Of a stretch of 64,000 nt of DNA, positions 23,506-43,108 are shown one piece after another. Location of the stretch: contig JBCCUP010000008.1 in the NCBI GenBank assembly GCA_039196715.1, forward strand, positions 5,488 to 69,487, in the 5' to 3' direction. Source of the DNA: Pseudomonadota bacterium (lineage in GTDB: Bacteria; Pseudomonadota; Gammaproteobacteria; CALCKW01). The position numbers were made by a program, and so were the translations under genes. The notes below the pieces were generated by a model. The model saw only the letters and a list, made by a program, of their open reading frames with translations. It was not told where the DNA came from and searched no databases. How positions within the stretch are numbered: the first letter of the stretch is position 1; the number at the start of each line of letters is the position of its first letter.

Positions 23506-24873
23506 TCAGCGCGGCCAGTGCCGATGGTGCTCGTCGATGACAAAGGGGTGTGCGTGCCTGGTCGCGGCGTGGTGGTGCGGGTGCCGGTGCGGCTCCGGGC
23601 CCTCCCACCCCTCGTGCACATGCTGGTGGTGATCGTCATGGGTGTGCAGGTGATCGTGGTCCAGTGCGTCGTGACGGTGCAGCAGCGCGTCCGGGTCATC
23701 GCGCGGCCAAAGCCGCACAGCGAGCAACAAGGCCAGGCCCGAAATGGCCGCATGGAGCCAAAACCAGACATCGACGGGCAACACCGCGCCGAGAAATCCG
23801 GCACTGGCGTACGCCAGCAACCAGATGCCGTGAGAGAGTGAAAAATTGGTGGCAAACAGGGCGCTGCGGTCGCTGTCGTGACACGACGCAATGATGATTC
23901 GACCCGAGGGTGTCAGGATCAGAGAGCCACCGACACCCACGAGAAACCAGACGAACAGCACAGCGGTGTGGGAACGCGTTGCAACCCCGAGGCCCAGACC
24001 GAGCAGTGCGACCAGCGCGCCGGACAACATCACGGTGCGTGTGTCGGTGCGCCGCAACAGGCCCGGCACACTCCAGGCCGCCAGAACCGCACCAACGCCC
24101 GCAGCACCGGCCGTCAAGGGCACCCAGTGCTCGGGCAGTTCAAAGTACTCCCGCACCAACACGACCGTGTTGACAATGACCAGGGCGCCGCTGAAGGAGA
24201 CGACTGCGTGCAGCGCCAGCAAACCGCGCAACCGCGGCGTCCGGGTGTAGGCGCTGATGCCGAACAGCAGATTGTGCAGCACGCCGCCGGCACGCTCGCT
24301 GGCCGCTGCCGACGGTACCCGACTCCACCAGACGAGCGCGGCAGAGCCGATCAGCAACACCGCCGAGAGGGCATAGAGTCGCGTGTGGTCGGCGACAAAG
24401 AGCAGCCCCGCGGCGAGCAGCGGACCCGCCATGCCCTCCAACTCCTGAGCAAGCCGAGACCAGCTCAGCGCCTTCACGTACTGCTCGTCGTCGAGGAGAT
24501 CGGGAATCGCAGCCTGGTATACCGGCGTGAACGCAGCCGAAAACATGTAGAACACCGCAACCAGCAGCACAAACGCAACACTGGAACCGACCACAGCCAA
24601 CCACAGCAACAGGCCCGCGCGGGCCAGATCGAGGGTGACAAGCCAATTGCGCCGCGGCAGGCGGTCGATGTACGCACCGACCACCGGCGCAACCGTGACG
24701 TAGACGAGCATCTTGCCGATCAGCGCGGTCGCGAGTAACGCGCCCGCTGCGTCAGGTCGAAAGGCGTGCGCGCTCAGGGCGAGCGCGACAACAACAAGGC
24801 CGTTGGCCACGAGTGAGAGCAACTGCGCAGCAAAGAGTCGCGCGAAGGCCCGGTTTTCGAGTGGTGAGGTCAT
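23506..24873 (-). CDS. MFS transporter with a histidine-rich C-terminal cytoplasmic tail
   Basis: 12-TM MFS core with start MTSPLENRAFARLF. The C-terminus reads HDALDHDHLHTHDDHHQHVHEGWEGPEPHRHPHHHAATRHAHPFVIDEHHRHW. It lies downstream of the riboswitch-cobW unit. The ORF-track extension to 25239 was rejected. Confidence 0.75.
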   Translation of the reverse strand: MTSPLENRAFARLFAAQLLSLVANGLVVVALALSAHAFRPDAAGALLATALIGKMLVYVTVAPVVGAYIDRLPRRNWLVTLDLARAGLLLWLAVVGSSVAFVLLVAVFYMFSAAFTPVYQAAIPDLLDDEQYVKALSWSRLAQELEGMAGPLLAAGLLFVADHTRLYALSAVLLIGSAALVWWSRVPSAAASERAGGVLHNLLFGISAYTRTPRLRGLLALHAVVSFSGALVIVNTVVLVREYFELPEHWVPLTAGAAGVGAVLAAWSVPGLLRRTDTRTVMLSGALVALLGLGLGVATRSHTAVLFVWFLVGVGGSLILTPSGRIIIASCHDSDRSALFATNFSLSHGIWLLAYASAGFLGAVLPVDVWFWLHAAISGLALLLAVRLWPRDDPDALLHRHDALDHDHLHTHDDHHQHVHEGWEGPEPHRHPHHHAATRHAHPFVIDEHHRHWPR

Positions 24874-25024
24874 CGCTTGGCACGCCCACTGGCGATCTGG
24901 ACTACCGGCATTCTGCGGCCACCGGCTGTGCCGCAGCAAGCACACGTGGCATGACCGCCTGAACGCTGTTGCCACCGGAGCGCGCGGCCCGGATTCAGCA
25001 GCGCGCGCCGACCCGCGAACGGGG

Positions 25025-26085
25025 TCAGGCCACCGGCCGAGTCTCGAAGTGGGTCTCCAGGCGCGTCTGGTCAAGATGAAAGCCGATACACACCAGGCGC
25101 GTGCGACGCGCCTCATCATCGCGCCAACGCCGATCGAAATGGGTGTCGAAGCGCGCACCGACCCCCTGCACCAGCAAGCGCATCGGCTTGTCAGGTACGG
25201 CGGCGTGGCCCTTGATCCGGAAGACCGTCTCCGCCCCAACGAGAGCGTCCAGGCCGGCCTGCAGCGCCTCGGGTGTCATCGGCGGCAGGTCGAGTACCAC
25301 GTGGCTGAACACGTCGTGCGCGTGGTGGTGGTCTTCGTCGTGGTCGTGGTGGTGGTCGTGGTGGGTGTGGATGTGGTCGATCGCGTCCTCGGCCGCCGCG
25401 CCCACACCGAGCAGCACACTCGGCGAAACAGCGCATTGCGCAGTCGGCAACAGCTTGACCTCGCGCGGCAGACGCGCGGTGATTGCCTCCGAGACGCTCG
25501 CCAGGGTGTCGTCCGACATCAGGTCGGTCTTGTTGACCAGCACGAGATCGGCCGCGCTGAGCTGGTCGTCGAACAACTCGACCAGCTCCGGTGTGTGGTC
25601 GAGGCTGTCGTCGGCGAGCCGCTGCGCCTGCACCGCGTCCGGGTCGTCGGCAAACCGACCGGCGGCCACCGCCGGCCCATCGACCACCGTGATCACCGCA
25701 TCGACCGTGCAGGCTGTGCGGATTTCCGGCCAGGCGAAGGCCTGCACCAGCGGCTTTGGCAGGGCGAGCCCCGAGGTTTCGATCAGGATGTGGTCGATCT
25801 GGTCACGGCGTTCGATCAACTGCTCGAGCACCGGATGGAACTCCTCCTGTACGGTGCAGCAGATGCAGCCGTTGGCGAGTTCGTAGATGCCGGGGCCGGA
25901 CTCGGTTTCGTCCTCGCACCCGATCGAACACTGGCGGACCAACTCGGTGTCGACGTCCATCGCGCCGAATTCGTTGACGATCACAGCGACCCGCAACCCT
26001 TCGGTGTTTTTCAACACGTTCTGGACCAGGGTGGTCTTGCCGCTGCCGAGAAAGCCGGTGACAACGGTGGCGGGCAACTTTTTCA
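25025..26085 (-). CDS. cobW: COG0523 GTPase metallochaperone, CobW-like (cobalamin biosynthesis cobalt chaperone)
   Basis: P-loop GFLGSGKTTL, metal-binding GCICCT, His-rich stretch HIHTHHDHHHDHDEDHHHAHD and a C-terminal CobW_C domain. The start ATG is at 26083-26085. Confidence 0.85.
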
Positions 26086-26508
26086 TGCGGGTGACTCGTC
26101 GAAGGGGGGCATTCGGGCGATGAAGTGGCCCTTGATGGCGGCAGGCCACTGTTTGTACGGTACGCGCCCGCTTTCGGACTGCGTGTAGAGCGCAGCGTAC
26201 GCAGCGAGCGCATCGGCCGACTCGGCCGACGGCTCAAAGCGTCCAATGACATAGCTGTATTTTGAGGGATCACACAAGTGCACATTGCAGGCGTGATCGC
26301 AGGCCATCAGGCACTGGACCGGACGTAACGACACATCGGAGTCGGCGAAGGCCGCCTGAAGCCGTTGCAGAAAGTGCTCGCCGCCACTCAGCCCGTCGGG
26401 CGCATTGGCCGCGCGATCCCGGTTGCAGGTGGTGCAGACGTGGAGCACGGCGGCGGAGGTGGATGACGCGGTCTCGTCCGCGCGTGCGGCAGTCGGTGTT
26501 CGGTCCAA
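26083..26508 (-). CDS. DUF1636 metal-binding protein (thioredoxin-like [2Fe-2S]-ferredoxin fold), commonly linked to cobW
   Basis: Cys/His motifs HVCTTCNRD and CLMACDHACNVHLC. The TTG start at 26506-26508 is preceded by GGGGAG. Its stop overlaps the cobW start (ATGA). The ORF-track N-terminal extension overlaps the riboswitch and was rejected. Confidence 0.65.
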   Translation of the reverse strand: MDRTPTAARADETASSTSAAVLHVCTTCNRDRAANAPDGLSGGEHFLQRLQAAFADSDVSLRPVQCLMACDHACNVHLCDPSKYSYVIGRFEPSAESADALAAYAALYTQSESGRVPYKQWPAAIKGHFIARMPPFDESPA

Positions 26509-26534
26509 AGTGAGCTCCCCGCTCGTCGGAACGT

Positions 26535-26725
26535 CATGCGACGGCAGGTCTCCTGGCTCCGGGTCACCGTGTGACGCGCCTTCCCGGTCCGGCGGGGTGC
26601 CGAGACCAGTGGCGTGTGCGGCACACTCCACCGTTACAGTTGCGGGGGCAGCTCGGGCATGTCACCCGATTCCCTTTTTTACACCTGCGACCCAGGTGGG
26701 TGGCAGGTGACCGATCGCTGGCGCC
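26535..26725 (-). promoter_or_regulatory. cobalamin (AdoCbl) riboswitch, RF00174-like
   Basis: The minus-strand sequence contains the canonical blocks in order: GGTCGCAGGTGTAAAAAAGGGAATCGGGTGA ... CCCCGCAACTGTAACGG ... GCCACTGG ... CGGGAAGGC ... GAGCCAGGAGACCTGCC (the B12 box). It sits directly upstream of DUF1636-cobW. Confidence 0.85.
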
Positions 26726-26811
26726 GAGTGTACCAGCAATCCCCGCCACACTCGCGTCGATTGCGACACCGGCCGCGCCGCGCACGACCCTCGAAGGACC
26801 CGCAAACGCGC

Positions 26812-30337: not shown

Positions 30338-31684
30338 ATGTTCGACGAACCTTACCGCGCACAGCGCAAGATCGACCCGAGCCAAGGCAGTCACCTCGCC
30401 GACGGCTCACCCAACAACGACGACCGCATCGAGATCGGCCCGACCCAACTCGCCTTCCGCGAGTGGGCGGCAGCGGGGCTGACGTTGCCCAACCTGCCGG
30501 CCATGCGCGAGTACCGCTGGCGGCGGCTCGTCGACCACATCGTCGCACGCGACTGCGGGGGCCTGTTGCTGTTCGATCCGCTCAACATCCGCTACGCGAC
30601 CGACAGCACCAACATGCAGCTCTGGAACACGCACAACCCGTTCCGAGCAGTGCTGGTGTGCGCCGATGGCTACATGGTGATCTGGGACTACAAGAACTCG
30701 CCTTTTCTCTCGACCTTCAACCCGCTGGTGCGCGAGCAGCGCGCCGGTGCCGACCTCTTCTACTTCGACCGCGGCGATGCGATCGGCACGGCGGCCGACA
30801 CCTTCTCGAACGAAGTCCGCGTGTTGATCGAGCAACACGGCGGCAACAACACCCGCCTCGCGGTCGACAAGGTCATGCTGCACGGCTTGCGCGCGCTCGA
30901 GGCTCAGGGCTTCGAGGTGCAGCCGGGTGAGGAGCTGACCGAGAAGGCGCGCTCGATCAAAGGACCGGACGAAATCCTCGCCATGCGCTGCGCGTCGCAC
31001 GCCTGTGAACGCGCCGTCGCCGAGATGGAGCGCTTCGCACGCGAGAAGATTCCGGTTCAGGACGTGTCCGAGGACGACGTCTGGGCCGTCTTGCACAGCG
31101 AAAACATCCGCCGTGGCGGCGAGTGGATCGAGACGCGGCTGCTCGCGTCCGGACCCCGCACCAACCCGTGGTTCCAGGAGTGCGGCCAGCGTACCGTGCA
31201 GAACAACGAAATCATCAGCTTCGACACCGACCTCGTCGGCAGCTACGGCATCTGTGTCGACATGAGTCGCAGCTGGTGGATCGGCGATCAGGCGCCGCCC
31301 GCCAAGATGGTCGACGCCATGCAGCACGCGCACGAACACATCATGCACAACATGGCGATGCTCAAACCCGGCGTGAACATTCAGGACCTCTCACGCAACA
31401 CCCACGTGCTCCGGCCCGAATTCCAGAAACTCAAGTACGGCTGCCTGATGCACGGCGTCGGCTTGTGCGACGAGTGGCCGCTGGTCGCCTACCCCGACCA
31501 GATGGTCGAGGGCGCGTTCGACTACGAGTTGCAGCCCGGCATGGTGCTGTGCGTCGAGGCGCTGGTCAGCCCCGAGGGCGGCAGCTTCTCGATCAAGCTC
31601 GAAGACCAGGTGCTCGTGACCGAGGACGGCCACGAGAACCTGACGGCCTACCCGTTCGACGAGTGGCTGATGGGGCAACGCTGA
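30338..31684 (+). CDS. M24-family metallopeptidase-fold protein (creatinase/prolidase N-domain plus pita-bread domain), DddP-like
   Basis: 448 aa. The sequence FDPLNIRYATDSTNMQLWNTHNPFR...ISFDTDLVGSYGICVDMSRSWWIG...HGVGLCDEWP...LCVEALVS conserves the M24 metal ligands (D, D, H, E, E). The DddP (DMSP lyase) assignment is tentative. Confidence 0.6.
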   Translation: MFDEPYRAQRKIDPSQGSHLADGSPNNDDRIEIGPTQLAFREWAAAGLTLPNLPAMREYRWRRLVDHIVARDCGGLLLFDPLNIRYATDSTNMQLWNTHNPFRAVLVCADGYMVIWDYKNSPFLSTFNPLVREQRAGADLFYFDRGDAIGTAADTFSNEVRVLIEQHGGNNTRLAVDKVMLHGLRALEAQGFEVQPGEELTEKARSIKGPDEILAMRCASHACERAVAEMERFAREKIPVQDVSEDDVWAVLHSENIRRGGEWIETRLLASGPRTNPWFQECGQRTVQNNEIISFDTDLVGSYGICVDMSRSWWIGDQAPPAKMVDAMQHAHEHIMHNMAMLKPGVNIQDLSRNTHVLRPEFQKLKYGCLMHGVGLCDEWPLVAYPDQMVEGAFDYELQPGMVLCVEALVSPEGGSFSIKLEDQVLVTEDGHENLTAYPFDEWLMGQR

Positions 31685-31776: not shown

Positions 31777-33365
31777 TCAGTCGAGCGAACGGGGCGCGGT
31801 GAAATCGAAGCGCGCGTTCGGCGGCAAGGTCGAGGCGAACGCGACGAGCTGATGCCTCACGCGCTCAACAGACCCCGACGAGGTCGCAAAGAACGACACC
31901 CTGTCACGATCCGGGGTCAACACCGGCCCGTCGAGCCGCAGTTCGCCGAGCTTGACCCAGTCCGCAGGAACCACCTGGAACCACCTGGAACCACGCCTCG
32001 TAGACCATGACAAGTGGGATGCCGCGCTCGCGCACCAGGTCACCCATCCACGCGCCACCCGAAATGCCGCCTGAGGCACGTTCGGCCGCACGGCGTGCCA
32101 GCCGTGCCTCGCGCGACGACAGCCCCCACAAATCGAGCACGTAGTGTTCGTTCTCGAAAGCGACATAGCCGAGGTCATTGACCGCCACACGATCACGCAC
32201 GTACGCCGTCGCGACGCGGTGCATCTGGTACTGCTGGCTGTAGATGTTGTTGGACGCGGTGGGAATCTGCCCAAGCACCACGAGGTAGGGAAACCCCAAG
32301 GCAAGGCCGGCAACCGAAACCAGACCCGCGACACCGACTGCGGACAGCCAACCTGCCTCGGGGCGCCGGCGAATCGGTCCGCCGTAGAGATAGAGCGCGA
32401 CCAGCATACCGAGCGCGACCGCGTACAGCTCATAGCGGTGGTACCCGATCGTCTTGCCGAGGGCGATGTGTGCGGCAAGTGCGCCCGCGCCACACACCGC
32501 GATCAGCCGTTTTTCCGTGCGCGCACCGAAAAGCGCGTAAGCCGTCAACACCAACGCGAGCGAGACCAACGCCAGGCCCTGACGGACCGAAAGGGCCTCC
32601 AGAATGTTGCGAAGCGTGGCGGTTCCCGTCGACTCGAGCACGCGCGCTTTCGCGAGAATGGAACTTGGCAGGTAGTCGAGTCCAATCCCGATCAGAAACG
32701 CCGAGTACGCCAGCAACAGGGCAGCCACCAGCACGCCCACCAGGACCGATTTGAGGTGGTGCCCCCGCACGAACAGCACCCCCAACGCCAGCCCCGTGAG
32801 CGCCAGCATCTCGTAACGCACCAGGGGCGCGGTCACCAGCCACCCGCTGATGCGGCGATCCCGTGCCTCGACCATGAGCCCGGCAGCAATACCCACCGCA
32901 CACAGCACACAGCACCTGCAGCGAATGCTCCATGCCGTTGTAAATCAACCCGACCGCGTTTGACGCGTGTGTGAGCACCGCCACCGTCACCGCGATGAAG
33001 CCGGCCTTGCGTACGCACGTCGCGCCTCCGATGCTGATCGCGACGGCCTGCACAGCCACGTATACCGTTGCCAAGGTGGCCAGCGTGCACAACACCAGGG
33101 GCGCGAGAACGTGTGCGCCAAGCAGCGCCAACAGCACCGGCCAGATGATGCTCGATGAGGGCGCGGAGACCTCCTCCCGGTTCAGACCGTGGTGCCCCCG
33201 CAGGAGGTTCTCGGCTTGTGCGAGGTGGATGTAGGGGTCGTCGATCAGGTAGACGAAGTGGCCGTCGTTCACTGCCATGATCCGAACCCACTCGAACGCC
33301 ACCAGCGCCAGCGTGAACCCGGAGACCACCACGACCGCTGCCCAAACGTTGAACCGGTGTGTCAC
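31777..33365 (-). pseudogene. polytopic membrane protein gene (ancestrally about 524 codons) disrupted by two short tandem duplications: 7-bp ACACAGC x2 at 32900-32913 and 10-bp GGAACCACCT x2 (+ partial third) at 31967-31996
   Basis: Three ORF-track pieces (32430..33488, 31904..32908, 31777..32493) are collinear. Deleting one copy of each repeat in silico restores a single frame (...HSLQVLCAV|GIAAGLMVE... and ...AWFQVVP|ADWVKLGEL...). Confidence 0.7.
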
Positions 33366-33536: not shown

Positions 33537-35423
33537 TCAAGCATAAAAGAGATTCATCACCGTCAGGGACACCACCAGGAACAGCACGGTCATGATCCCG
33601 CCGCACCGCACGAAGTCGATCACGCGGTAGCCACCCGGGCCCATCAAGAGGGCGTTGACCTGGTGGGTCGGGATGATGAAGGAGTTGGAGGTGGAGATCG
33701 CGACTGTCAGGGCAAAGAGGGCCGGGTCACCGCCCGCGGTGATCGCGATGGAGACGGCGAGCGGCACCAGCAACACCGTCGCGCCGACGTTCGACATGAC
33801 CAACGTGAACGCCGTTGCCAGCACCGCCACGCCGGCCTGCAGCGACCACATCGGCCAGCCGTCGAGCGCGCTCAGCACCTGCTGCGCAATCCAGGTCGCG
33901 GTGCCGGTCTCCTGCACCGCCTGCCCGAGCGGGATCAGACTCGCGAGCAGAAACACGGTATTCCAGCTGACCGCCGCGTAGGCTTCGTCGACGGTCAGCA
34001 CGCGCGACACGATCATGCCGGTGGCGCCGATCAGCAGCGCGAGCGACAGGCGCACGTCGCTGAACAGAATCAGGCCGAGCGCGATCAGGAAAAACAGCAA
34101 TGCCCAACCAACCTTTTTCGGGCGCAACTCCTCCTGCGGAAAATCACTGGTGACAATCACGTAGTTGTTGTCGGCCTTGAGCTGGGTGAGCCGCTCCCAC
34201 TGGGTGTGTACCACCAGTGTGTCGCCCGACTGCAGCGGCATCACGCTGATGTCAGTCGCCTCATGGTCTTCCGTCTCGACGTGGCTGTAGGTGTTTTCGC
34301 CGCGGTGCACCGCGAGCAGGCTGAGGCCCCGTGACCGGCGCAGCTTGAGATCGCGTGCGGTCTTGGCGATCGCCTGCGAGTCCGGCGGCACGACGATCTC
34401 GGCGACACCGGCACGCGTCGGCACGAATTCCTCGGCGAAGATCTCGAGGCGCGGCAGGATGGTCAGCTCGCAGCGCTCGGCCATGCGCTCGACCACCTGG
34501 CGCTGGCCGAGCACCGCAAGCCGGCACGGCGCGGTGATCTCGACGTCGACCGGCGGGCCGACCCACCGTCTGCCTTTGTGGTAGGTGCCGATGATGTACA
34601 GCCGGTTTTCGAGCATCACATCGCCGATCAGGCGGTTCTGCAGCGAGCAGCCGGCGGGCACGTCGAGCTCGAAGATGTCGGCTTGCAGACCGTACAGGCG
34701 TTTGAGGTACTGCTTCATCGACTGACCGGCGGCACCGTCGGTCTTGTCTGCCGTCTTCGGCAACACCCAGCGACCGAACACCACGAAATACAGGATGCCG
34801 CTGGTCAGCAGTGCCAAGCCGATCGGGGTCACCGAAAACAGGCTGAACTCGCTCATCTGGGCGTCCGCTGGCAACGCCGCGTTGGCACCCGCGATGAGGT
34901 CGTTCAGCAGGATCAGCGGTGAGGAGCCGACCATGGTCAGCGTACCGCCGAGGATCGCGCAAAAACCCATCGGCATCAGCAGCCGGCCGAGCGGGATGCG
35001 CGTACGCGCCGAGATCCGCGAGACGACCGGCAGGAACAAGGCGGCGGCCCCGACGTTCTGCATGAAGCTCGAGATGACGCCGACCGTGCCGGACACGATC
35101 GGCACGATGCGTTGCTCCGTACCGCCGCCATGCCGCAGGATGAGCGCGGCGACCCGCGACATGACACCGGTCTTGTCGAGTCCGGCGCCGATGATCATGA
35201 CTGCGATGATCGACATTACCGCGTTGGACGAGAACCCGGCAAAGAGCTCGCGCACATCGACCAGCCCCTCGAGCATCGGCATGTAGCTGAGCGCCCCGAG
35301 CACCACCATGATCAGCAGCGCCGCGAGGTCCACGCGCAACAGCTCGAACGCGAACAGCACCACCGTCAAGCCCAGCAGGCTCAGGACAGCGATCATCTGG
35401 ACGGTCAGCGTGACGGGTTCCAA
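33537..35423 (-). CDS. SLC13/DASS-family anion permease with two central TrkA-C regulatory domains
   Basis: 628 aa: N- and C-terminal transporter repeats flank two TrkA-C-like cytoplasmic domains. A TTG start follows a GAGGAG RBS, 30 bp downstream of the cobD stop. Confidence 0.8.
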   Translation of the reverse strand: MEPVTLTVQMIAVLSLLGLTVVLFAFELLRVDLAALLIMVVLGALSYMPMLEGLVDVRELFAGFSSNAVMSIIAVMIIGAGLDKTGVMSRVAALILRHGGGTEQRIVPIVSGTVGVISSFMQNVGAAALFLPVVSRISARTRIPLGRLLMPMGFCAILGGTLTMVGSSPLILLNDLIAGANAALPADAQMSEFSLFSVTPIGLALLTSGILYFVVFGRWVLPKTADKTDGAAGQSMKQYLKRLYGLQADIFELDVPAGCSLQNRLIGDVMLENRLYIIGTYHKGRRWVGPPVDVEITAPCRLAVLGQRQVVERMAERCELTILPRLEIFAEEFVPTRAGVAEIVVPPDSQAIAKTARDLKLRRSRGLSLLAVHRGENTYSHVETEDHEATDISVMPLQSGDTLVVHTQWERLTQLKADNNYVIVTSDFPQEELRPKKVGWALLFFLIALGLILFSDVRLSLALLIGATGMIVSRVLTVDEAYAAVSWNTVFLLASLIPLGQAVQETGTATWIAQQVLSALDGWPMWSLQAGVAVLATAFTLVMSNVGATVLLVPLAVSIAITAGGDPALFALTVAISTSNSFIIPTHQVNALLMGPGGYRVIDFVRCGGIMTVLFLVVSLTVMNLFYA

Positions 35424-35453
35424 GCTCGACAGCTCCTCGGGTCAACTGGTCAA

Positions 35454-36531
35454 TTATAGGTCAGCAGACGCATTTGCGCCGAGCGCATCCCAGGCTTGTA
35501 AAAACAGGGCATCGGCGCCGGCCCCCTTGCTGCAGACCCGGATGTGGCCTGGCAGGCCGAACGAGGCAGCACTGCGCACCTGGACGCGGCACTGCTGCAG
35601 CATGCGAAGCCGGTAGGCGCTCGCCCCAGGGCAACGCACCAGGGCGAAGTGGCAGTCGCTCGGCACCACCTCGGCACGGCGTGCCCGCAACGCCGTCCAG
35701 AGCTGTTCGGCGCTCTGCCGCACCGCACGGATGGCAGCGTCCGTCGCCACCACCACCTCGGGATCGAGCGCGGCGATGCCGGCAGCCATGGCCGGGGCCG
35801 ACACCGACCAGGGCGGCAGCACACGGTGCACCGCCTGGGCATCGTCAAGCTGCGCGACGGCGTAACCGAGTCGCAAGCCTGCGAGCGCGTAGTCCTTGGT
35901 GAGCGAGTAGAGGTTGATCGCGGCAGGGACCTCGTCAAAGCGCGATGTGGGGTCGGCGAAGGTTGCGTACGCGTGGTCGACGACCAGGCGACCGCCCGTT
36001 TCGGCGCAGACCGCCGCGAGCCGCGCCAGCTGCGCGCGCGGCCAGAGCCGGCCTGTGGGGTTGTTCGGCTGGCACACGAACACCAGCGCCGGGCGCTCCC
36101 GCTCGACGTTGGCAAAAACCTCGGTCAGATCCGGCTCCGCGCCGAGCGGGACCGACACTTCGAGTGGGCGGCGGCGCAGGGCCTGCGCGGCGTCGAGGTA
36201 CTCGCCAAAACTCGGCTGCACGGCAAGGACGGTATCGCCTTCGCGGGTGACGGCCTGCACGGCAGCAAAGATGAGCTGTGCCGCACCCGCGCCGGCGACC
36301 ACCTGCGCCGCTGGCACACCGTGGCAGGCGGCCAGCCGCGCACGCAAGGGCGCCGCGTCAGGCGAGGGGTAGGTCTCGATGGCCGCACGCTCGGCGGCGC
36401 GACGCACGCGCGCATGGGCGCGACCGGGGAGGCAGTTGCTGCTCATGTCCAGCACGCGTTCCGCATCGACACCGAGCGCCTCGAGCTCGGTCGTGTTCAG
36501 CGCGCCGTGCCGCTCACTCACGTCAGTGACC
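35454..36531 (-). CDS. cobD: L-threonine-O-3-phosphate decarboxylase (CobD of Salmonella / CobC of Pseudomonas); class II aminotransferase fold
   Basis: Histidinol-phosphate-aminotransferase-like PLP enzyme, with NPTG and the PLP-lysine region YSLTKDYALAGLRLGY. It overlaps the cbiB stop by 14 bp. A GTG start is inferred. Confidence 0.75.
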
Positions 36532-37435
36532 CGAGTGCGGCACAGGCGAGGCAGACGAGCCAGAAGCCGACACCGCGCGTGACCAGGTCGCAAGCCCGGC
36601 CGATGTCGCGCGCGGTCGGATCGCGCCCGTCACCGAGGCGCGGCCGGCTTTTGAGCTCACCGCCGTATTCGGCGTCTCCACCGAGGGCGAGACCAAGTGC
36701 ACCGGCCCCGCTCGCCATGACCGCACCGGCGTTGCCGCTGTACCAGCGGTGTGAACGCCACGCACGCCAGGCCGATCGGCTCGAGCCGAGGACCGTGTAG
36801 GTCATCGCCGTCAGCCGCGCGGGCACCCAGTTGAGCACATCGTCTAACCGGGCCGCCGCCCAGCCGAAGTGTGCGTAACGGGCATTGCGGTACCCCCACA
36901 TGGCGTCCAGGGTGTTGCTGGCCCGGTAGACCACGGCACCGATCGGGCCGAACACCGCCGCCCAGAACAGCGCGGCAAACACCGCGTCGGCCCCGTTCTC
37001 GAGCACTGATTCAACGGTGGCCCGGCTCACGGCCGTGGCATCGAGCTCGCGCGTGTCGCGCGACACGATGTGCGACAGCGCACCGCGGGCCGCGTTGAGG
37101 TCGCCCTCTTCAAGCGGCTGTGACACGGCTGTCGCGTGCTCAACCAGACTCCTGCCGCCGAGGGCGAGCGCCAGCACCAGCACCCCGAGCAGGAGGTCGG
37201 GCAGCACGAGATCGAGCAGCAACACCGGACAGATCGCCACCAGCAGCACGGCCAACACCGCCACGACCCCGGCCCGCCGCTGGGACGTCGCCGATTCGGC
37301 GCCGTCGCACAAGCGCTCCTCCACCCGCGTCGCCAGGTTGCCGAGCCAGACCAGCGGGTGCCAGCGCAGAGGTGGCTCTCCGAACAGGCGATCGGCCACC
37401 ACGGCGAAAAGAGCAACGGCGAAGACGGTGACCAC
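36518..37435 (-). CDS. cbiB: adenosylcobinamide-phosphate synthase (CbiB; CobD in the Pseudomonas nomenclature)
   Basis: Membrane protein with the N-terminus AVVADRLFGEPPLRWHPLVWLG typical of CbiB. Only the C-terminal ~306 aa of the 531-aa ORF-track frame are homologous, so the upstream extension was rejected. Confidence 0.8.
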   Translation of the reverse strand: MVTVFAVALFAVVADRLFGEPPLRWHPLVWLGNLATRVEERLCDGAESATSQRRAGVVAVLAVLLVAICPVLLLDLVLPDLLLGVLVLALALGGRSLVEHATAVSQPLEEGDLNAARGALSHIVSRDTRELDATAVSRATVESVLENGADAVFAALFWAAVFGPIGAVVYRASNTLDAMWGYRNARYAHFGWAAARLDDVLNWVPARLTAMTYTVLGSSRSAWRAWRSHRWYSGNAGAVMASGAGALGLALGGDAEYGGELKSRPRLGDGRDPTARDIGRACDLVTRGVGFWLVCLACAALGSLT

Positions 37436-37543
37436 GTCGCGTGAACCATCCCAAAACACGCAGTATACCGATCGACCTTTCACGGGCGGGTGTGCGTTGC
37501 GTCGGTTTCTGCCCCGCCTGCGTCCAGCCGATACAATACCGCA

Positions 37544-38854
37544 ATGCCACCCGGACTCATCGTCGCCGCGCCGCACTCGGACGCCGGCAAGACCACCGTG
37601 ACGCTCGCGCTGCTGCGCGCGCTGCGCCGTCGTGCCCGGGTGGGTGCCTTCAAATGCGGACCGGACTACATCGACCCCCGCTTTCATGCCCACGCGTCCG
37701 GCCAGTCCTGTTACAACCTCGACCCCTGGACCCAGTCCGATGCGAGTCTGGCCGAGATCATCGCCTACCACCAGGGTCAGGACCTGCTGCTCGCCGAGGG
37801 GGTAATGGGCCTGTTCGACGGCGCGCCTGACGGCCGCGGCAGCACCGCCGAGCTCGCGCGCCGCACCGGCTGGCCGGTCGTGCTGGTGGTCGATTGCAAG
37901 GGCATGGCAGATTCGATTGCCGCCCTGGTCAGCGGATTTGTCGACTTCGACCGCTCGCTGACCGTGGCCGGCGTGGTGCTCAACCGGGTCGGGTCCGACG
38001 CCCACACCGAGCGACTGCGCGAGGCCCTGGCGCCGTTGCGTGTGCCCGTGCTTGGCGCCCTGCCCCGTCTTCAGACACTCGCGCTGCCGAAACGCCACCT
38101 GGGCCTGCTGCAAGCAGACGAGTTACCCGGGCTCGACCGATTGCTCGATGCGGCCGCCGACACCCTGAGCGCGCACCTCAGCCTCGAGACGACCGTCGCT
38201 GCCGCCGCCCGCGGACACCTGACAGTGGACGCCGATCACTGCCCCTGGGTGCCGGCACTCGGCGACGCTGTGGCCGTCGCGCGCGACCACGCATTCGCGT
38301 TCTGCTACCCCCACTGGCTGCGCCGGTGGCAGGACCGCGGCGTGACCGTGATGCCGTTTTCACCGCTTGCTGACGAGGCTCCCGACCCCTCGGCAACTGG
38401 CGTTTTTCTGCCCGGCGGCTACCCTGAACTGCACGCCGGGACACTTGCCAAGGCCCGGCGTTTCCACCAGGCTCTGTACCAATTCGCCAAGCGTGGCACG
38501 CCGATCTACGGCGAGTGCGGGGGGTTCATGGCGCTCGGCCACACCCTCATCGACGCCGAGTCCCGACCGCACCGGATGGCCGGGTTGCTCGACATCGACA
38601 CAAGTTTCGCCGACCGCCGATTGCAGCTCGGCTACCGCCGTGTCCAACTCGCGGCACCGACGCCGCTCGGCTCAGCCCCCTTGGGTGCCCACGAATTCCA
38701 CTACAGCCAGCGCGTAGCGAGTCGGCAAGCCGCAGCCACGGCCGAGATCGTCGACGCCCGCGGTCAGCGACACGACAACACCTGGTTCGCGTCCGGCAGC
38801 GTGTCCGGCAGCTACCTGCACGCCATTGACGCGTTTGCGCAGCTCCAAACATGA
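37544..38854 (+). CDS. cobB: cobyrinic acid (hydrogenobyrinic acid) a,c-diamide synthase
   Basis: P-loop N-terminus GLIVAAPHSDAGKTTVTLALLRAL. The C-terminal GATase domain has YGECGGFMALG. 436 aa. Confidence 0.88.
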   Translation: MPPGLIVAAPHSDAGKTTVTLALLRALRRRARVGAFKCGPDYIDPRFHAHASGQSCYNLDPWTQSDASLAEIIAYHQGQDLLLAEGVMGLFDGAPDGRGSTAELARRTGWPVVLVVDCKGMADSIAALVSGFVDFDRSLTVAGVVLNRVGSDAHTERLREALAPLRVPVLGALPRLQTLALPKRHLGLLQADELPGLDRLLDAAADTLSAHLSLETTVAAAARGHLTVDADHCPWVPALGDAVAVARDHAFAFCYPHWLRRWQDRGVTVMPFSPLADEAPDPSATGVFLPGGYPELHAGTLAKARRFHQALYQFAKRGTPIYGECGGFMALGHTLIDAESRPHRMAGLLDIDTSFADRRLQLGYRRVQLAAPTPLGSAPLGAHEFHYSQRVASRQAAATAEIVDARGQRHDNTWFASGSVSGSYLHAIDAFAQLQT

Positions 38855-38938
38855 AAACCCTGACACCAGGCAAGGTCTGATCCGGCTGTCACGGGTGTGG
38901 TAGTCTGCGGCGCTGACGGCACGCTTCAGGAGTCCACC

Positions 38939-39487
38939 ATGGCCAAGCAGTTTCCGGCGATCGACGCCAAGCACCGGGAATTCATCGAAGCGCAGCAGAT
39001 GTTCTTCGTCGCCACCGCGGCAGAGGCCGGCCGCGTCAACCTGTCACCGAAGGGCAAGGACGCGTTTCGCGTGCTCGACGCCAACCGCATCCTGTGGCTC
39101 AACCTGACCGGCAGCGGCAACGAGACCGCCGCACACCTCAAACAGAATCCGCGAATGACGGTCATGTTCTGCGCCTTCGAGGGCGCGCCGATGATCCTGC
39201 GGTTGTACGGCACGGCGCGCACGGTGCACGAATGGGACGCGGACTGGGAGACCCTCTATGGCCACTTCGACCCGGCAACCGGCGCCCGCCAGGTCTACGA
39301 CATGGCGGTCGATCTGGTGCAGACCAGTTGCGGCTTCGCCGTGCCGGCGTACGCCTACGAAGGGCAGCGCGACATCCTCGACACCTGGGCCGACAAGCGC
39401 GGCAAGGACGGCGTGCGCACCTACTGGCGCGAGCGCAACGGCCTGTCGATCGACGGGTTCGAGACCGGCACCGCGCGCGACACGTAG
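38939..39487 (+). CDS. pyridoxamine 5'-phosphate oxidase family protein (FMN-binding split barrel)
   Basis: An AGGAG RBS precedes ATG 38939. The sequence EFIEAQQMFFVATAAEAGRVNLSPKG is typical of the PNPOx-like fold. Confidence 0.65.
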   Translation: MAKQFPAIDAKHREFIEAQQMFFVATAAEAGRVNLSPKGKDAFRVLDANRILWLNLTGSGNETAAHLKQNPRMTVMFCAFEGAPMILRLYGTARTVHEWDADWETLYGHFDPATGARQVYDMAVDLVQTSCGFAVPAYAYEGQRDILDTWADKRGKDGVRTYWRERNGLSIDGFETGTARDT

Positions 39488-40314
39488 TCGGCGAGCGCCG
39501 CTGCATACTGACCGGTGCCGGGCACCGTTTGCTCGCGCCAGGCGCAGTAGCACGCGAAGCGAAAATCGTAGGCGGCCTGGGTGTCGATCCAGGTGGCGTC
39601 CAACGTGACCCCGGCGGCAGCGAGAAAGCGCGCGGCCTCCCAAAGCGGCGCGGGCGGGAATCCGTAGGCCAGGCGCATGCCGCGCGCGAGGTAGCAGGCG
39701 AGGTCTTCGTGCGGGTTGCCAAGCGCGACACACTGCCAATCAACCAACACCGCCGCGTCGCCACCCACCCAATTGCCCGGATGCGGGTCGCGGTGGATCA
39801 CCGTGCATGCGTGAGGCCGGGCACCCACCTCGGGCGCGCTGGCCCGCAGCGCAGCGACCGCCTCGTTGTCGGTGGCGACCCGATCGAGCATATCCAGACC
39901 CTGCTCGACCCACGCCCGCGGCGTGCCGGCCACGACGGACAGCCCGGTCCACGGCGACAGGTCGTGCACCGCGCGAAGCTGCTGTGCCGCCCGCTCGGGC
40001 GCGTGGAAACGGCCACCCGCCACGCAAGGCCAAACCGACCAATCACCCCAGGCGCCAAGCAAGCGCGGCGCGAGTGACGTCGGCGTTGCCTCGGCGGCGG
40101 CACGCTCAACCGCGGCGTCGTTGCCGAACAGCGGGTTGCGCACCGCATCGGCCTGGTGGTGTTTGACGATACAATCTCGCGCGCCAGGCGCAGACGCGCG
40201 CCAGACGCGGTTGCTGTGCGCGCCCGCCACGCTCACCAGCTGCCAGGACGCGCCCGCGGGCGCGAGCTTCAGGTGCTCCAGCAGGGCGACGGCGGTGAAA
40301 TCAGGTTCGGCCAT
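39421..40314 (-). CDS. aminoglycoside-phosphotransferase (APH/choline-kinase) family kinase; candidate BluE-like L-threonine kinase of cobalamin nucleotide-loop assembly
   Basis: Catalytic loop VIHRDPHPGNWV and LVDWQCVALGNPHEDLA (Brenner HxDxxxxN plus DxxxD). It sits between cobB and cbiD. The 785-aa ORF-track frame is mostly a spurious upstream extension. Confidence 0.6.
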   Translation of the reverse strand: MAEPDFTAVALLEHLKLAPAGASWQLVSVAGAHSNRVWRASAPGARDCIVKHHQADAVRNPLFGNDAAVERAAAEATPTSLAPRLLGAWGDWSVWPCVAGGRFHAPERAAQQLRAVHDLSPWTGLSVVAGTPRAWVEQGLDMLDRVATDNEAVAALRASAPEVGARPHACTVIHRDPHPGNWVGGDAAVLVDWQCVALGNPHEDLACYLARGMRLAYGFPPAPLWEAARFLAAAGVTLDATWIDTQAAYDFRFACYCAWREQTVPGTGQYAAALADYVSRAVPVSNPSIDRPLRSRQ

Positions 40315-42101: not shown

Positions 42102-42223
42102 CGCCGGGACCACCTTGGGAGACACCGCACGGTGAACCGAAGCCAGCGGGTGCCGCGCTGTGCTCCCGGGTGGCAATCCTGTCTCGGGGCCGTTCCCTTT
42201 CCGCGTGACCGACGAGGCCGTCG

Positions 42224-43108
42224 ATGGACATTCTGACTGACAACCCCGCCGCGCTGGTCGCTGCGGCTATCCGGGCGCTGAGCGTGGGGGTTGCGCTGCT
42301 CGCCGCCGGGACGGTTCTGGTCAACACCCTGTGGATGGACGCCGATGCGATGCGCGCGTCGGGCAGCCCCCGCACCGCGTTGTCGGCCAGTGTGGTCGCG
42401 GTCGTGGCGCTGCTGGTCGACTGGGTGAACACGGCCCGCCTGCTGTACGGCGACGCCGGCAGCGCAGTCGATCCGCTGATCATCCAGAGCGCCCTCGACA
42501 CCCCGCTGGGTCAGTTCTACGCGGTGGCGCTCGCCGGCCTGGCCTGGCTGTTCTTCGCGACAATCGGTGCCCGCACACTGCCCTACCTCGCGGTCCCGGG
42601 CGCGCTGGCGGTGATCGCGAGTGTCGGTCTGGTCGGGCACACCCTGGATGAACCGCGCGCGCTGCTCTATGCGCTGCTGACGCTTCACATCGGCTTCGCC
42701 GCCATGTGGATGGGCGTGCTGATGCCCTTGTCGCGGTTGACTCGCCAGCCGCGCAACCGCGGCTACGCGGCCGACCTCGCCGAGGACCTCGGTCGCGGGG
42801 GTTTCGTGCTGCTGCCCAGCATCGCGCTCGCGGCGGGCTACCTCGGCTGGCTGTTACTCGGCCAACCCACCAGCGTGCCCACCCACGCCTACGCGCAACT
42901 GATGCTGGTCAAGGTCCTGTTGTTTCTGGCGCTGGTCGCCGTCGGAGCATTCAACCGATTCGTGATCGTGCCGCGCTTGCATGACAGCCTCGGTGCCGGG
43001 GCCTGGCTGCGCGTTACCATCGCACTCGAGGCGCTGCTGTTCGCCGCCATCCTGCTGGCCGTCGCCGTGACAACCGACAACGTCCACCCACGCCCTTTGC
43101 CCGGCTGA
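42224..43108 (+). CDS. CopD-family membrane protein (copper-resistance-D-like 8-TM domain)
   Basis: 294 aa and polytopic, with the conserved His-containing helices GHTLDEP and HIGFAAMWMG. It lies 120 bp downstream of cobK. Confidence 0.6.
   Translation: MDILTDNPAALVAAAIRALSVGVALLAAGTVLVNTLWMDADAMRASGSPRTALSASVVAVVALLVDWVNTARLLYGDAGSAVDPLIIQSALDTPLGQFYAVALAGLAWLFFATIGARTLPYLAVPGALAVIASVGLVGHTLDEPRALLYALLTLHIGFAAMWMGVLMPLSRLTRQPRNRGYAADLAEDLGRGGFVLLPSIALAAGYLGWLLLGQPTSVPTHAYAQLMLVKVLLFLALVAVGAFNRFVIVPRLHDSLGAGAWLRVTIALEALLFAAILLAVAVTTDNVHPRPLPG

Follow-up and report, generated by a model that had tools for sequence, protein, structure and literature searches.

The aminopropanol-phosphate branch of cobamide synthesis runs from a kinase through a decarboxylase to CbiB/CobD, as shown by Fang et al. 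(bioRxiv 10.1101/394338), and its documented L-threonine kinases are BluE and PduX (bioRxiv 10.1101/394338; PMC7242693). The module is arranged as pduX-cobD-cbiB in Salmonella enterica and as bluE-cobC-cobD in Rhodobacter capsulatus, and in its canonical form it contains no transporter. Here we analyze a stretch of 64,000 nucleotides (the window) from contig JBCCUP010000008.1 of a marine Pseudomonadota bacterium (GenBank assembly GCA_039196715.1), in which CbiB and a CobD-type decarboxylase are likewise encoded together, apparently coupled, and are followed by a gene for an SLC13/DASS-fold permease; the kinase candidate of this cluster belongs to the APH family, whereas the canonical module uses PduX or BluE. 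Transporter genes are found within other B12 clusters, namely CbiMNQO, NiCoT, CbtA/C/D/F/X, BtuBCDF, CblT/S and CbrUVT, which carry cobalt, corrinoids or 5,6-dimethylbenzimidazole and cluster recurrently across taxa (PMC8123684). The window permease shares their position inside a cob cluster, but it belongs to none of these families, has no riboswitch and is linked to cob genes in a single clade. We conclude, with a probability of about 65%, that its place behind cobD is a lineage-specific feature of gene order and that the protein is a general anion permease with no dedicated step in B12 synthesis.

The minus strand of positions 33537-37435 of the window, whose numbering is used throughout, carries three consecutive open reading frames (ORFs) in the order cbiB, cobD, permease:

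36518..37435, minus strand: cbiB, adenosylcobinamide-phosphate synthase (CobD in P. denitrificans naming), 305 aa, GTG start
35454..36521, minus strand: cobD-type pyridoxal phosphate (PLP) enzyme, probable L-threonine-O-3-phosphate decarboxylase, 355 aa, GTG start
35433..35438, minus strand: Shine-Dalgarno sequence GAGGAG, read from the sequence, 9 nucleotides ahead of the permease TTG
33537..35423, minus strand: SLC13/DASS-fold permease of the ion-transporter superfamily, 628 aa, TTG start
34146..34679, minus strand: tandem TrkA-C (RCK_C) domains of the permease, residues ~249-426, between the two transport repeats

This arrangement had been described in an original prediction, and profile matches together with direct reading of the sequence bear it out; independent gene calls on the public contigs agree with the gene boundaries in the window. 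The cobD stop codon (TAA, 35454-35456) and the permease TTG (35421-35423) are separated by 30 nucleotides, and GAGGAG precedes the start, both as predicted. The 628 residues and the two TrkA-C domains of the permease likewise hold, with PF02080 matching two stretches of the central loop. The overlap of cbiB and cobD, given earlier as 14 bp, must be corrected to the 4 bp GTGA (cobD GTG at 36519-36521, cbiB TGA at 36518-36520), as position 36531 is out of frame and no start codon. The same 4-bp overlap appears in independent gene calls of all clade members, five lineages in total, and suggests translational coupling of cbiB and cobD.

The two enzymes were compared with curated profiles. CbiB matches CobD_Cbib (PF03186) with 308.6 bits and TIGR00380 with 220.5 bits, above the cut-off of 165.9, and its homologues within the clade are 305 residues long as well. 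CobD has the class I/II aminotransferase fold; among 72 matching NCBIfam families the top score belongs to TIGR01140, L-threonine-O-3-phosphate decarboxylase, with HisC behind it at 179.8 bits, and the TIGR01140 score of 212.2 bits lies below the equivalog threshold of 290.55. The closest solved relative is CobD of S. enterica (1LC5, E 7e-30; best HisC E 2e-24), onto which the PLP-lysine stretch SLTK..GLRLGY aligns, with SLTKDYALAGLRLGY of the window protein falling on SLTKFYAIPGLRLGY.

The gene order is confined to one narrow, Granulosicoccaceae-related clade. The CobD proteins of this clade form a small and isolated group, in which five other clusters are 62-72% identical to the window protein and the next relative is at 42%. 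The order cbiA<>cbiB-cobD-permease, with cbiA divergent, is found in all five known lineages and was seen in every member whose contig is long enough (L089, L090, L091/L092 and L001), always with a TTG start and a gap of 18-32 nucleotides behind cobD. AGGAG, AGGA or GGAG stands at the Shine-Dalgarno site of the permease in 5/5 lineages. The outgroup CobD at 42% identity is encoded in a cbiB-cobD-cbiD-cbiJ cluster without the permease, and a metagenome scan with the CobD alignment returned one irrelevant locus at 27% identity, with no lineage gained.

Permeases of the clade share 88-97% of their amino acids, whereas the CobD proteins share 61-72% and the CbiB proteins 68-73%. That the clade acquired the permease recently by lateral transfer was considered as a source of this difference and rejected, given that identity at four-fold degenerate sites is 0.52-0.55 for the permease, much like that of its neighbors (0.40-0.48 for cobD and 0.46-0.53 for cbiB; expected from composition 0.36-0.40). 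These values imply that synonymous sites in the clade are near saturation and that the lineages diverged long ago. Since the four-fold sites of the permease have diverged like those of the adjacent genes, its high protein identity is due to purifying selection.

Outside the clade, the linkage disappears. Close homologues of the permease are very numerous, the best 120 listed by a homologue search being 67-100% identical. A separate survey of one genome per GTDB species gave about 600 permease matches, of which the best 80 were taken with 10-kb flanks and searched by tblastn with the window's CobD, CbiB, CbiA, CbiD, CbiJ, CysG, CobW and DddP. Among these 80 loci, cbiB-cobD lies upstream of the permease solely in L001, a metagenome-assembled genome of the Granulosicoccaceae whose permease is 91% identical. 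In none of the 79 other species, with homologues 64-74% identical, does cobD or cbiB adjoin the permease, and 76 of the 79 loci include at least 1.5 kb of upstream sequence. These species belong to the Rhodobacterales, Hyphomicrobiales and Caulobacterales, with one Luminiphilus. In two of them (L013 and L060) a cobA-cbiA/cbiD-cbiJ sub-cluster lies less than 10 kb from the permease, convergent or 7 kb off, and in L060, where it is convergent, an MFS (major facilitator superfamily) gene stands between the two; a rough expectation for genomes with several cob clusters is about 2 loci, and this proximity is thus about what chance would give. Neither dddP nor cysG, both of which lie near the permease in the clade, was found near it in any of the 79.

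The contexts that do occur outside the clade are housekeeping genes or depend on the group. The closest homologues lie in the order nfuA-tsaB-rimI-(arginase)-permease-recD-like helicase-luxI/luxR, and when the flanking ORFs were clustered, the commonest neighbor family was present in at most 13 of ~85 loci. Another lineage-specific pairing is seen in Amylibacter/Neptunicoccus-type groups, where in 11 loci the permease is directly preceded by an arginase-family gene in the same orientation (median gap 99 nucleotides; for example L081 6972-7958 and L085 1756-2721). In Aliiroseovarius sp. S253 (L060 9998-16518) the permease is convergent to a tetrapyrrole methylase-cbiA-MFS operon, with cbiD-cbiJ divergent from that operon; the composition of this sub-cluster is that of the window minus cbiB and cobD, and its MFS gene is not homologous to the MFS gene of the window.

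In a neighbor-joining tree the clade permeases form their own long branch next to an Amylibacter-type group. The tree is incongruent with taxonomy and is not relied on here. Ruegeria and Amylibacter permeases are split among its groups, the protein of the gammaproteobacterium Luminiphilus is 81% identical to that of Ruegeria arenilitoris, and all groups are 64-81% identical to each other. This discordance likely reflects several paralogous lineages, lateral transfer, or both. The identity of 64-81% between groups means that constraint on the family is unusually strong.

Homologues of the permease are annotated by NCBI as 'SLC13 family permease' and begin at the equivalent position with the shared N-terminus MExxxLT. 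In Pfam, the permease matches best to CitMHS (PF03600, 252.6 bits, full length), followed by Na_sulph_symp (PF00939, 48.9 bits against a gathering score of 27, spanning just residues 444-626) and TrkA_C (PF02080, 40.5 bits); when the central loop was scanned alone, both PF02080 stretches fell within residues 223-437. TIGR00785 scores 106.5 bits, under its cut-off of 198.6. Comparison with the sequences of solved structures gives weak matches (E ~1e-9), all of them on DASS proteins.

The AlphaFold2 model has a mean predicted local distance difference test (pLDDT) score of 68.8, which is moderate, and consists of about 10 helices, two beta-rich domains (residues 249-330 and 338-426, pLDDT ~80-85) and about 10 further helices. 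Foldseek retrieves VcINDY, NaCT, NaS1, NaDC3, Pho90 and plant DiT with a probability of 1.0 and target-normalized template-modeling (TM) scores of 0.64-0.70; ArsB and the membrane subunits of TRAP transporters rank lower, and the AspT match is poor. At this moderate confidence, the model agrees with an elevator fold that comprises two inverted repeats and a pair of helical hairpins. The protein is most likely a DASS-fold, elevator-type secondary anion transporter with a cytoplasmic TrkA-C tandem between the inverted repeats.

Comparison with the solved DASS/SLC13 structures (VcINDY, 4F35; NaCT, 7JSJ; NaS1, 8W6H; NaDC3, 8UVC; yeast Pho90, 8R33) reveals both likeness and difference. The fold is shared, the hairpin Asn is kept and the sequence aligns across both halves, with an identity of 12-15%, whereas the tandem TrkA-C insertion of ~180 residues is missing from all five. 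By its published description, the architecture is that of Chlamydomonas SAC1 and SLT1-3, in which TrkA-C domains likewise occupy the central cytoplasmic loop of an SLC13-like membrane core. Bacteria also possess SAC1 homologues, with two TrkA-C domains, and SAC1/SLT are putative Na+/sulfate transporters (PMC8780407); the window permease differs from these in its imperfect Na/sulfate signature. The AspT/AAE exchangers (9OQY, 8XW5), also of the ion-transporter superfamily, were retrieved by the fold search with TM scores of 0.22-0.26 and a differing core arrangement, which would place the modeled permease outside that family.

The hairpin tips bear on the likely substrate. In VcINDY, Ser-Asn-Thr at both tips forms the Na+/substrate site, and the Thr contacts the substrate carboxylate. 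In the alignment to VcINDY, WISNTATAAMMLP pairs with FMQNVGAAALFLP and FASNTASAALLIP with VMSNVGATVLLVP, so that the two Ser-Asn-Thr motifs become Gln-Asn-Val and Ser-Asn-Val; the Asn is retained and the Thr is replaced by Val in both, and neither tip has the complete signature. Loss of the hairpin Thr suggests that the permease carries something other than a classical dicarboxylate. The translation was also compared with the Na/sulfate symporter signature PS01271: TSNSFIIPTHQVNALL deviates from it, as T and H replace [LIVM] and [GSA] and the Asn comes one residue early. By analogy to its fold relatives, the permease could take up a small anion with two or three charges, for instance sulfate or a dicarboxylate, and transport is probably cation-coupled. 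A literature search found no work on YfbS-type or SLC13-type permeases in Rhodobacteraceae.

The hairpin motifs SSFMQNVGAAAL..P and MSNVGATVLLVPLA and the C-terminal motif ISTSNSF.IPTHQVNAL are identical in the window permease and in 19 homologues that are not linked to cob genes. Their invariance argues that the specificity of the clade permease is unchanged from that of the unlinked proteins.

The junctions of the locus offer a further line of evidence. The relevant elements are the following:

37462..37467, minus strand: -10 hexamer TATACT within CGGTATA[C/A]T, from the five-lineage alignment; candidate cbiB-cobD(-permease) promoter
35442..35459, minus strand: conserved junction island CTAT[A/G][A/C]TTG[A/T]CNAGTT[G/A][A/G], 18 nucleotides; candidate internal promoter
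35453-35458, minus strand: -10-like hexamer TATAAT within the island, overlapping the last cobD codon and the stop
26526-26731, minus strand: cobalamin riboswitch (RF00174, 113.8 bits), the only Rfam match in the window

In the junction alignment the island is kept in 5/5 lineages while both flanks diverge. The hexamer reads TATAAT, TATGAT or TATGCT, with A(-11) and T(-7) retained in 5/5, and in the window it ends 29 nucleotides ahead of the permease start codon. It is built from the last codon of cobD, CTA, and the stop, and CTA accounts for 3 of the 928 Leu codons (0.3%) in 20 window genes. In L089 the cobD frame runs through the island, and the nucleotides are still conserved. With both strands of the 64-kb window counted, TATAAT is found once, at this junction. 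The hexamer ahead of cbiB has a similar geometry, lying 26 nucleotides from the cbiB GTG with no recognizable -35 element. The conserved junction hexamer and its shared geometry with the cbiB promoter region suggest that the permease may be transcribed from a promoter of its own as well as by probable read-through. The possibility that the island is a repeated regulatory site was discarded, as the window contains one exact copy and near-matches at chance level; the island is also absent from the upstream regions of the sister-group permeases.

Neither a promoter nor a terminator was called in the cobD-permease gap by a consensus scan, and neither RNA structure nor a terminator was detected at this junction or past the permease (Z-scores -0.96 to +0.59). 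B12-cluster transporters are often controlled by riboswitches. The Rfam scan of the window revealed no cobalamin riboswitch ahead of cbiB-cobD-permease, and the upstream intergenic regions of three homologues, at 42-116 nucleotides, are too short for one. The riboswitch that is present lies 7 kb off and precedes a small ORF, cobW (25025-26233) and an MFS gene (23506-25275); in L089 as well, nhmmer matches a riboswitch solely before the DUF1636-cobW pair. We note that a B12- or cobalt-linked transporter is more plausibly encoded by the riboswitch-linked MFS gene than by the SLC13 permease gene.

Taken together, these observations fit the following scheme. The cbiB-cobD pair would be transcribed as a coupled unit from the conserved -10 element in the cbiA/cbiB divergent region, and the permease would probably be reached by read-through past cobD, with no terminator intervening. 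It would also be driven by its own -10-like hexamer over the cobD stop and translated from its own Shine-Dalgarno sequence and TTG. Of these options, read-through from the cbiB promoter combined with a permease promoter is the more likely. The permease would then carry out the same general anion uptake as do the homologues of 64-74% identity found in marine bacteria such as Rhodobacterales and Hyphomicrobiales, and its position is perhaps maintained because read-through adds expression. The general anion permease is preferred since the linkage is found nowhere else, the motifs are those of unlinked homologues, there is no riboswitch and an own promoter is likely. Co-localization with cob genes does not recur across unrelated taxa, being present in 5/5 clade lineages and, beside cobD or cbiB, in 0/79 others.

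Several observations weigh against this conclusion. Neither a terminator nor a strong structure lies between cobD and the permease, and the candidate internal promoter has no -35 match and was missed by the consensus scan. The gene order and the gap of 18-32 nucleotides persist in 5/5 lineages near synonymous saturation; such persistence over long divergence is typical of functional operons and constitutes the strongest point for a functional link. In addition, a B12-related substrate is possible even for the unlinked homologues, as the substrate is proposed by analogy.

Three more specific roles were weighed, the first of which is sulfate uptake. By analogy to SAC1/SLT the permease would be a Na+/sulfate-type symporter, and its surroundings would reflect sulfur metabolism rather than B12, through dddP and cysG (the latter for the siroheme of sulfite reductase), which lie convergent downstream. 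The leading fold matches include the sulfate-bound human NaS1, and the clade keeps both dddP (NF043017, 877 bits) and cysG (NF007922, 569 bits) close to the permease. However, TSNSFIIPT-HQVNALL only approximates the Na/sulfate signature, with a one-residue deletion and two mismatches, the two genes are away from the permease in the 79 other species, the permease-dddP region is variable even within the clade and a literature search found no report of transport by bacterial members. We regard this role as unlikely.

The original prediction proposed a different function, in which the permease imports L-threonine phosphate (Thr-P), (R)-1-amino-2-propanol phosphate or another anionic precursor, as a salvage route around the threonine kinase. 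In an extended form of this idea, the permease would have been captured by the cbiB-cobD operon, would be co-expressed with the consumers CobD and CbiB and, together with the APH-family kinase, would form an undescribed salvage or supply branch. The tight adjacency in five lineages near synonymous saturation and the lack of a terminator past cobD speak for this proposal; the DASS-fold relatives NaS1 (sulfate) and Pho90 (phosphate) make small phosphorylated anions chemically plausible, and the literature search found no Thr-P transporter, so the niche is open. Against it stand the missing linkage in 79/79 other species with close homologues, putative binding motifs that are the same in unlinked proteins, the lack of a riboswitch at the operon and the probable promoter of the permease. 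The conserved kinase-like gene of the cluster could supply the phosphorylated precursor internally, and an importer would then be less needed. Free Thr-P is not known to be an environmental nutrient. The proposal thus finds no support in these data, and both the import itself and the salvage branch appear improbable.

Two of the refuting conditions attached to that proposal speak against it. One was a linkage that is not conserved, and the linkage was found throughout the clade but in none of the 79 other species. Another was a promoter or terminator between cobD and the permease, where the search yielded no terminator but a conserved -10-like hexamer that the scan did not call. The assertion that the three genes are almost certainly co-transcribed agrees with their common strand, the short gap and the absence of a terminator, but is too strong in view of that hexamer.

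Import of a metal-anion complex such as cobalt-citrate that would feed cobalt to the pathway is very improbable: PF03600 is the best Pfam match over the full length and no recognized cobalt transporter was seen among the scanned window genes near the cluster, but PF03600 covers many ion-transporter-superfamily proteins other than the true CitMHS carriers of divalent metal-citrate, fold and sequence searches point to DASS proteins and to no characterized CitM/CitH, the objections from linkage and riboswitch apply equally, and a link to cobalt is more plausible for cobW and the riboswitch-controlled MFS gene.

The other genes around the permease include the following:

37541..38854, plus strand: cbiA/cobB, cobyrinic acid a,c-diamide synthase (PF01656, PF07685), divergent from cbiB, an arrangement kept in the clade
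38897-39487, plus strand: PNPOx-like flavin mononucleotide (FMN) flavoprotein (PF01243), beside cbiA
39421..40314, minus strand: APH-family kinase-like gene, 297 aa (PF01636, 44.1 bits), inside the cob cluster
31904-33365, minus strand: apparently one membrane-protein gene, ~490 aa, split by a frameshift near 32915, just downstream of the permease
30338-31684, plus strand: dimethylsulfoniopropionate (DMSP) lyase gene dddP (NF043017, 876.6 bits against a cut-off of 600), convergent to the permease

The APH-family gene precedes cbiD and cbiJ, which lie further along the cluster. Orthologues 57-65% identical are found between cbiD and the PNPOx-like gene in L001 (5096-5992), L089 (4172-5062) and L095 (10001-10888), which with the window makes at least four lineages. 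The motifs HRDPHPGN and DWQ are almost wholly invariant in the five clade proteins, with H174, R175, D176, H178, G180, N181, D192, W193 and Q194 identical in all. A homologue search retrieved just these five proteins, comparison with PDB sequences gave no match and the AlphaFold model is poor (pLDDT 52.5). We infer that the protein is a candidate for the kinase step of the aminopropanol-phosphate branch, with L-threonine or aminopropanol as its substrate. Homology to BluE was considered and rejected, as BluE appears to align with GHMP-kinase motifs (PMC10906522). If the APH-family protein is the kinase, it would be a solution distinct from both PduX and BluE.

On the strand of cbiA, the region 37436-37540 contains a conserved TACAAT (TACACT in one lineage) that ends 6 nucleotides ahead of the cbiA ATG. 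The spacing is similarly short in the other four lineages, which suggests that the cbiA mRNA is leaderless or nearly so. The PNPOx-like gene, 70-80% identical, stands next to cbiA in all clade loci that are long enough. Directly past cbiJ is a gene for a CopD-like copper-resistance membrane protein (42209-43108, plus strand), and in L095 (6963-8206) cbiJ is directly adjacent to a copC-copD pair of the same orientation.

Downstream of the permease, the gene first labeled 'M24 peptidase', between cysG and the permease, is DddP, and it is thus placed within the cob cluster. The dddP genes of L089 and L001 are 82-87% identical to that of the window, the range depending on the alignment method. Both dddP and cysG are kept nearby in the clade, and the interval between permease and dddP varies. 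In the window, cysG lies beyond the frameshifted gene, on the convergent side with dddP. In the frameshifted gene, the frame with high G+C content at third codon positions switches near 32915, and both ORFs contain the stretch ...LCAV... where they overlap. Neither Pfam nor NCBIfam has a match to this gene, L001 and L089 do not keep it at the corresponding place, and its split reflects either a pseudogene or an error of the assembly.

A role of the permease in the aminopropanol-phosphate branch would make it the first transporter known for this part of cobamide synthesis, and import of a linker precursor would mean that such precursors are exchanged in marine communities. The evidence favors instead a widespread and very strongly constrained anion permease whose position is lineage-specific, and cautions that a single operon-like adjacency is a poor guide to function. 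It also flags an abundant, uncharacterized subfamily of marine transporters with an SLC13-like core, two TrkA-C domains and QNV and SNV hairpin motifs. Better B12-related leads in this cluster are the conserved kinase-like gene of the APH family and the PNPOx-like flavoprotein.

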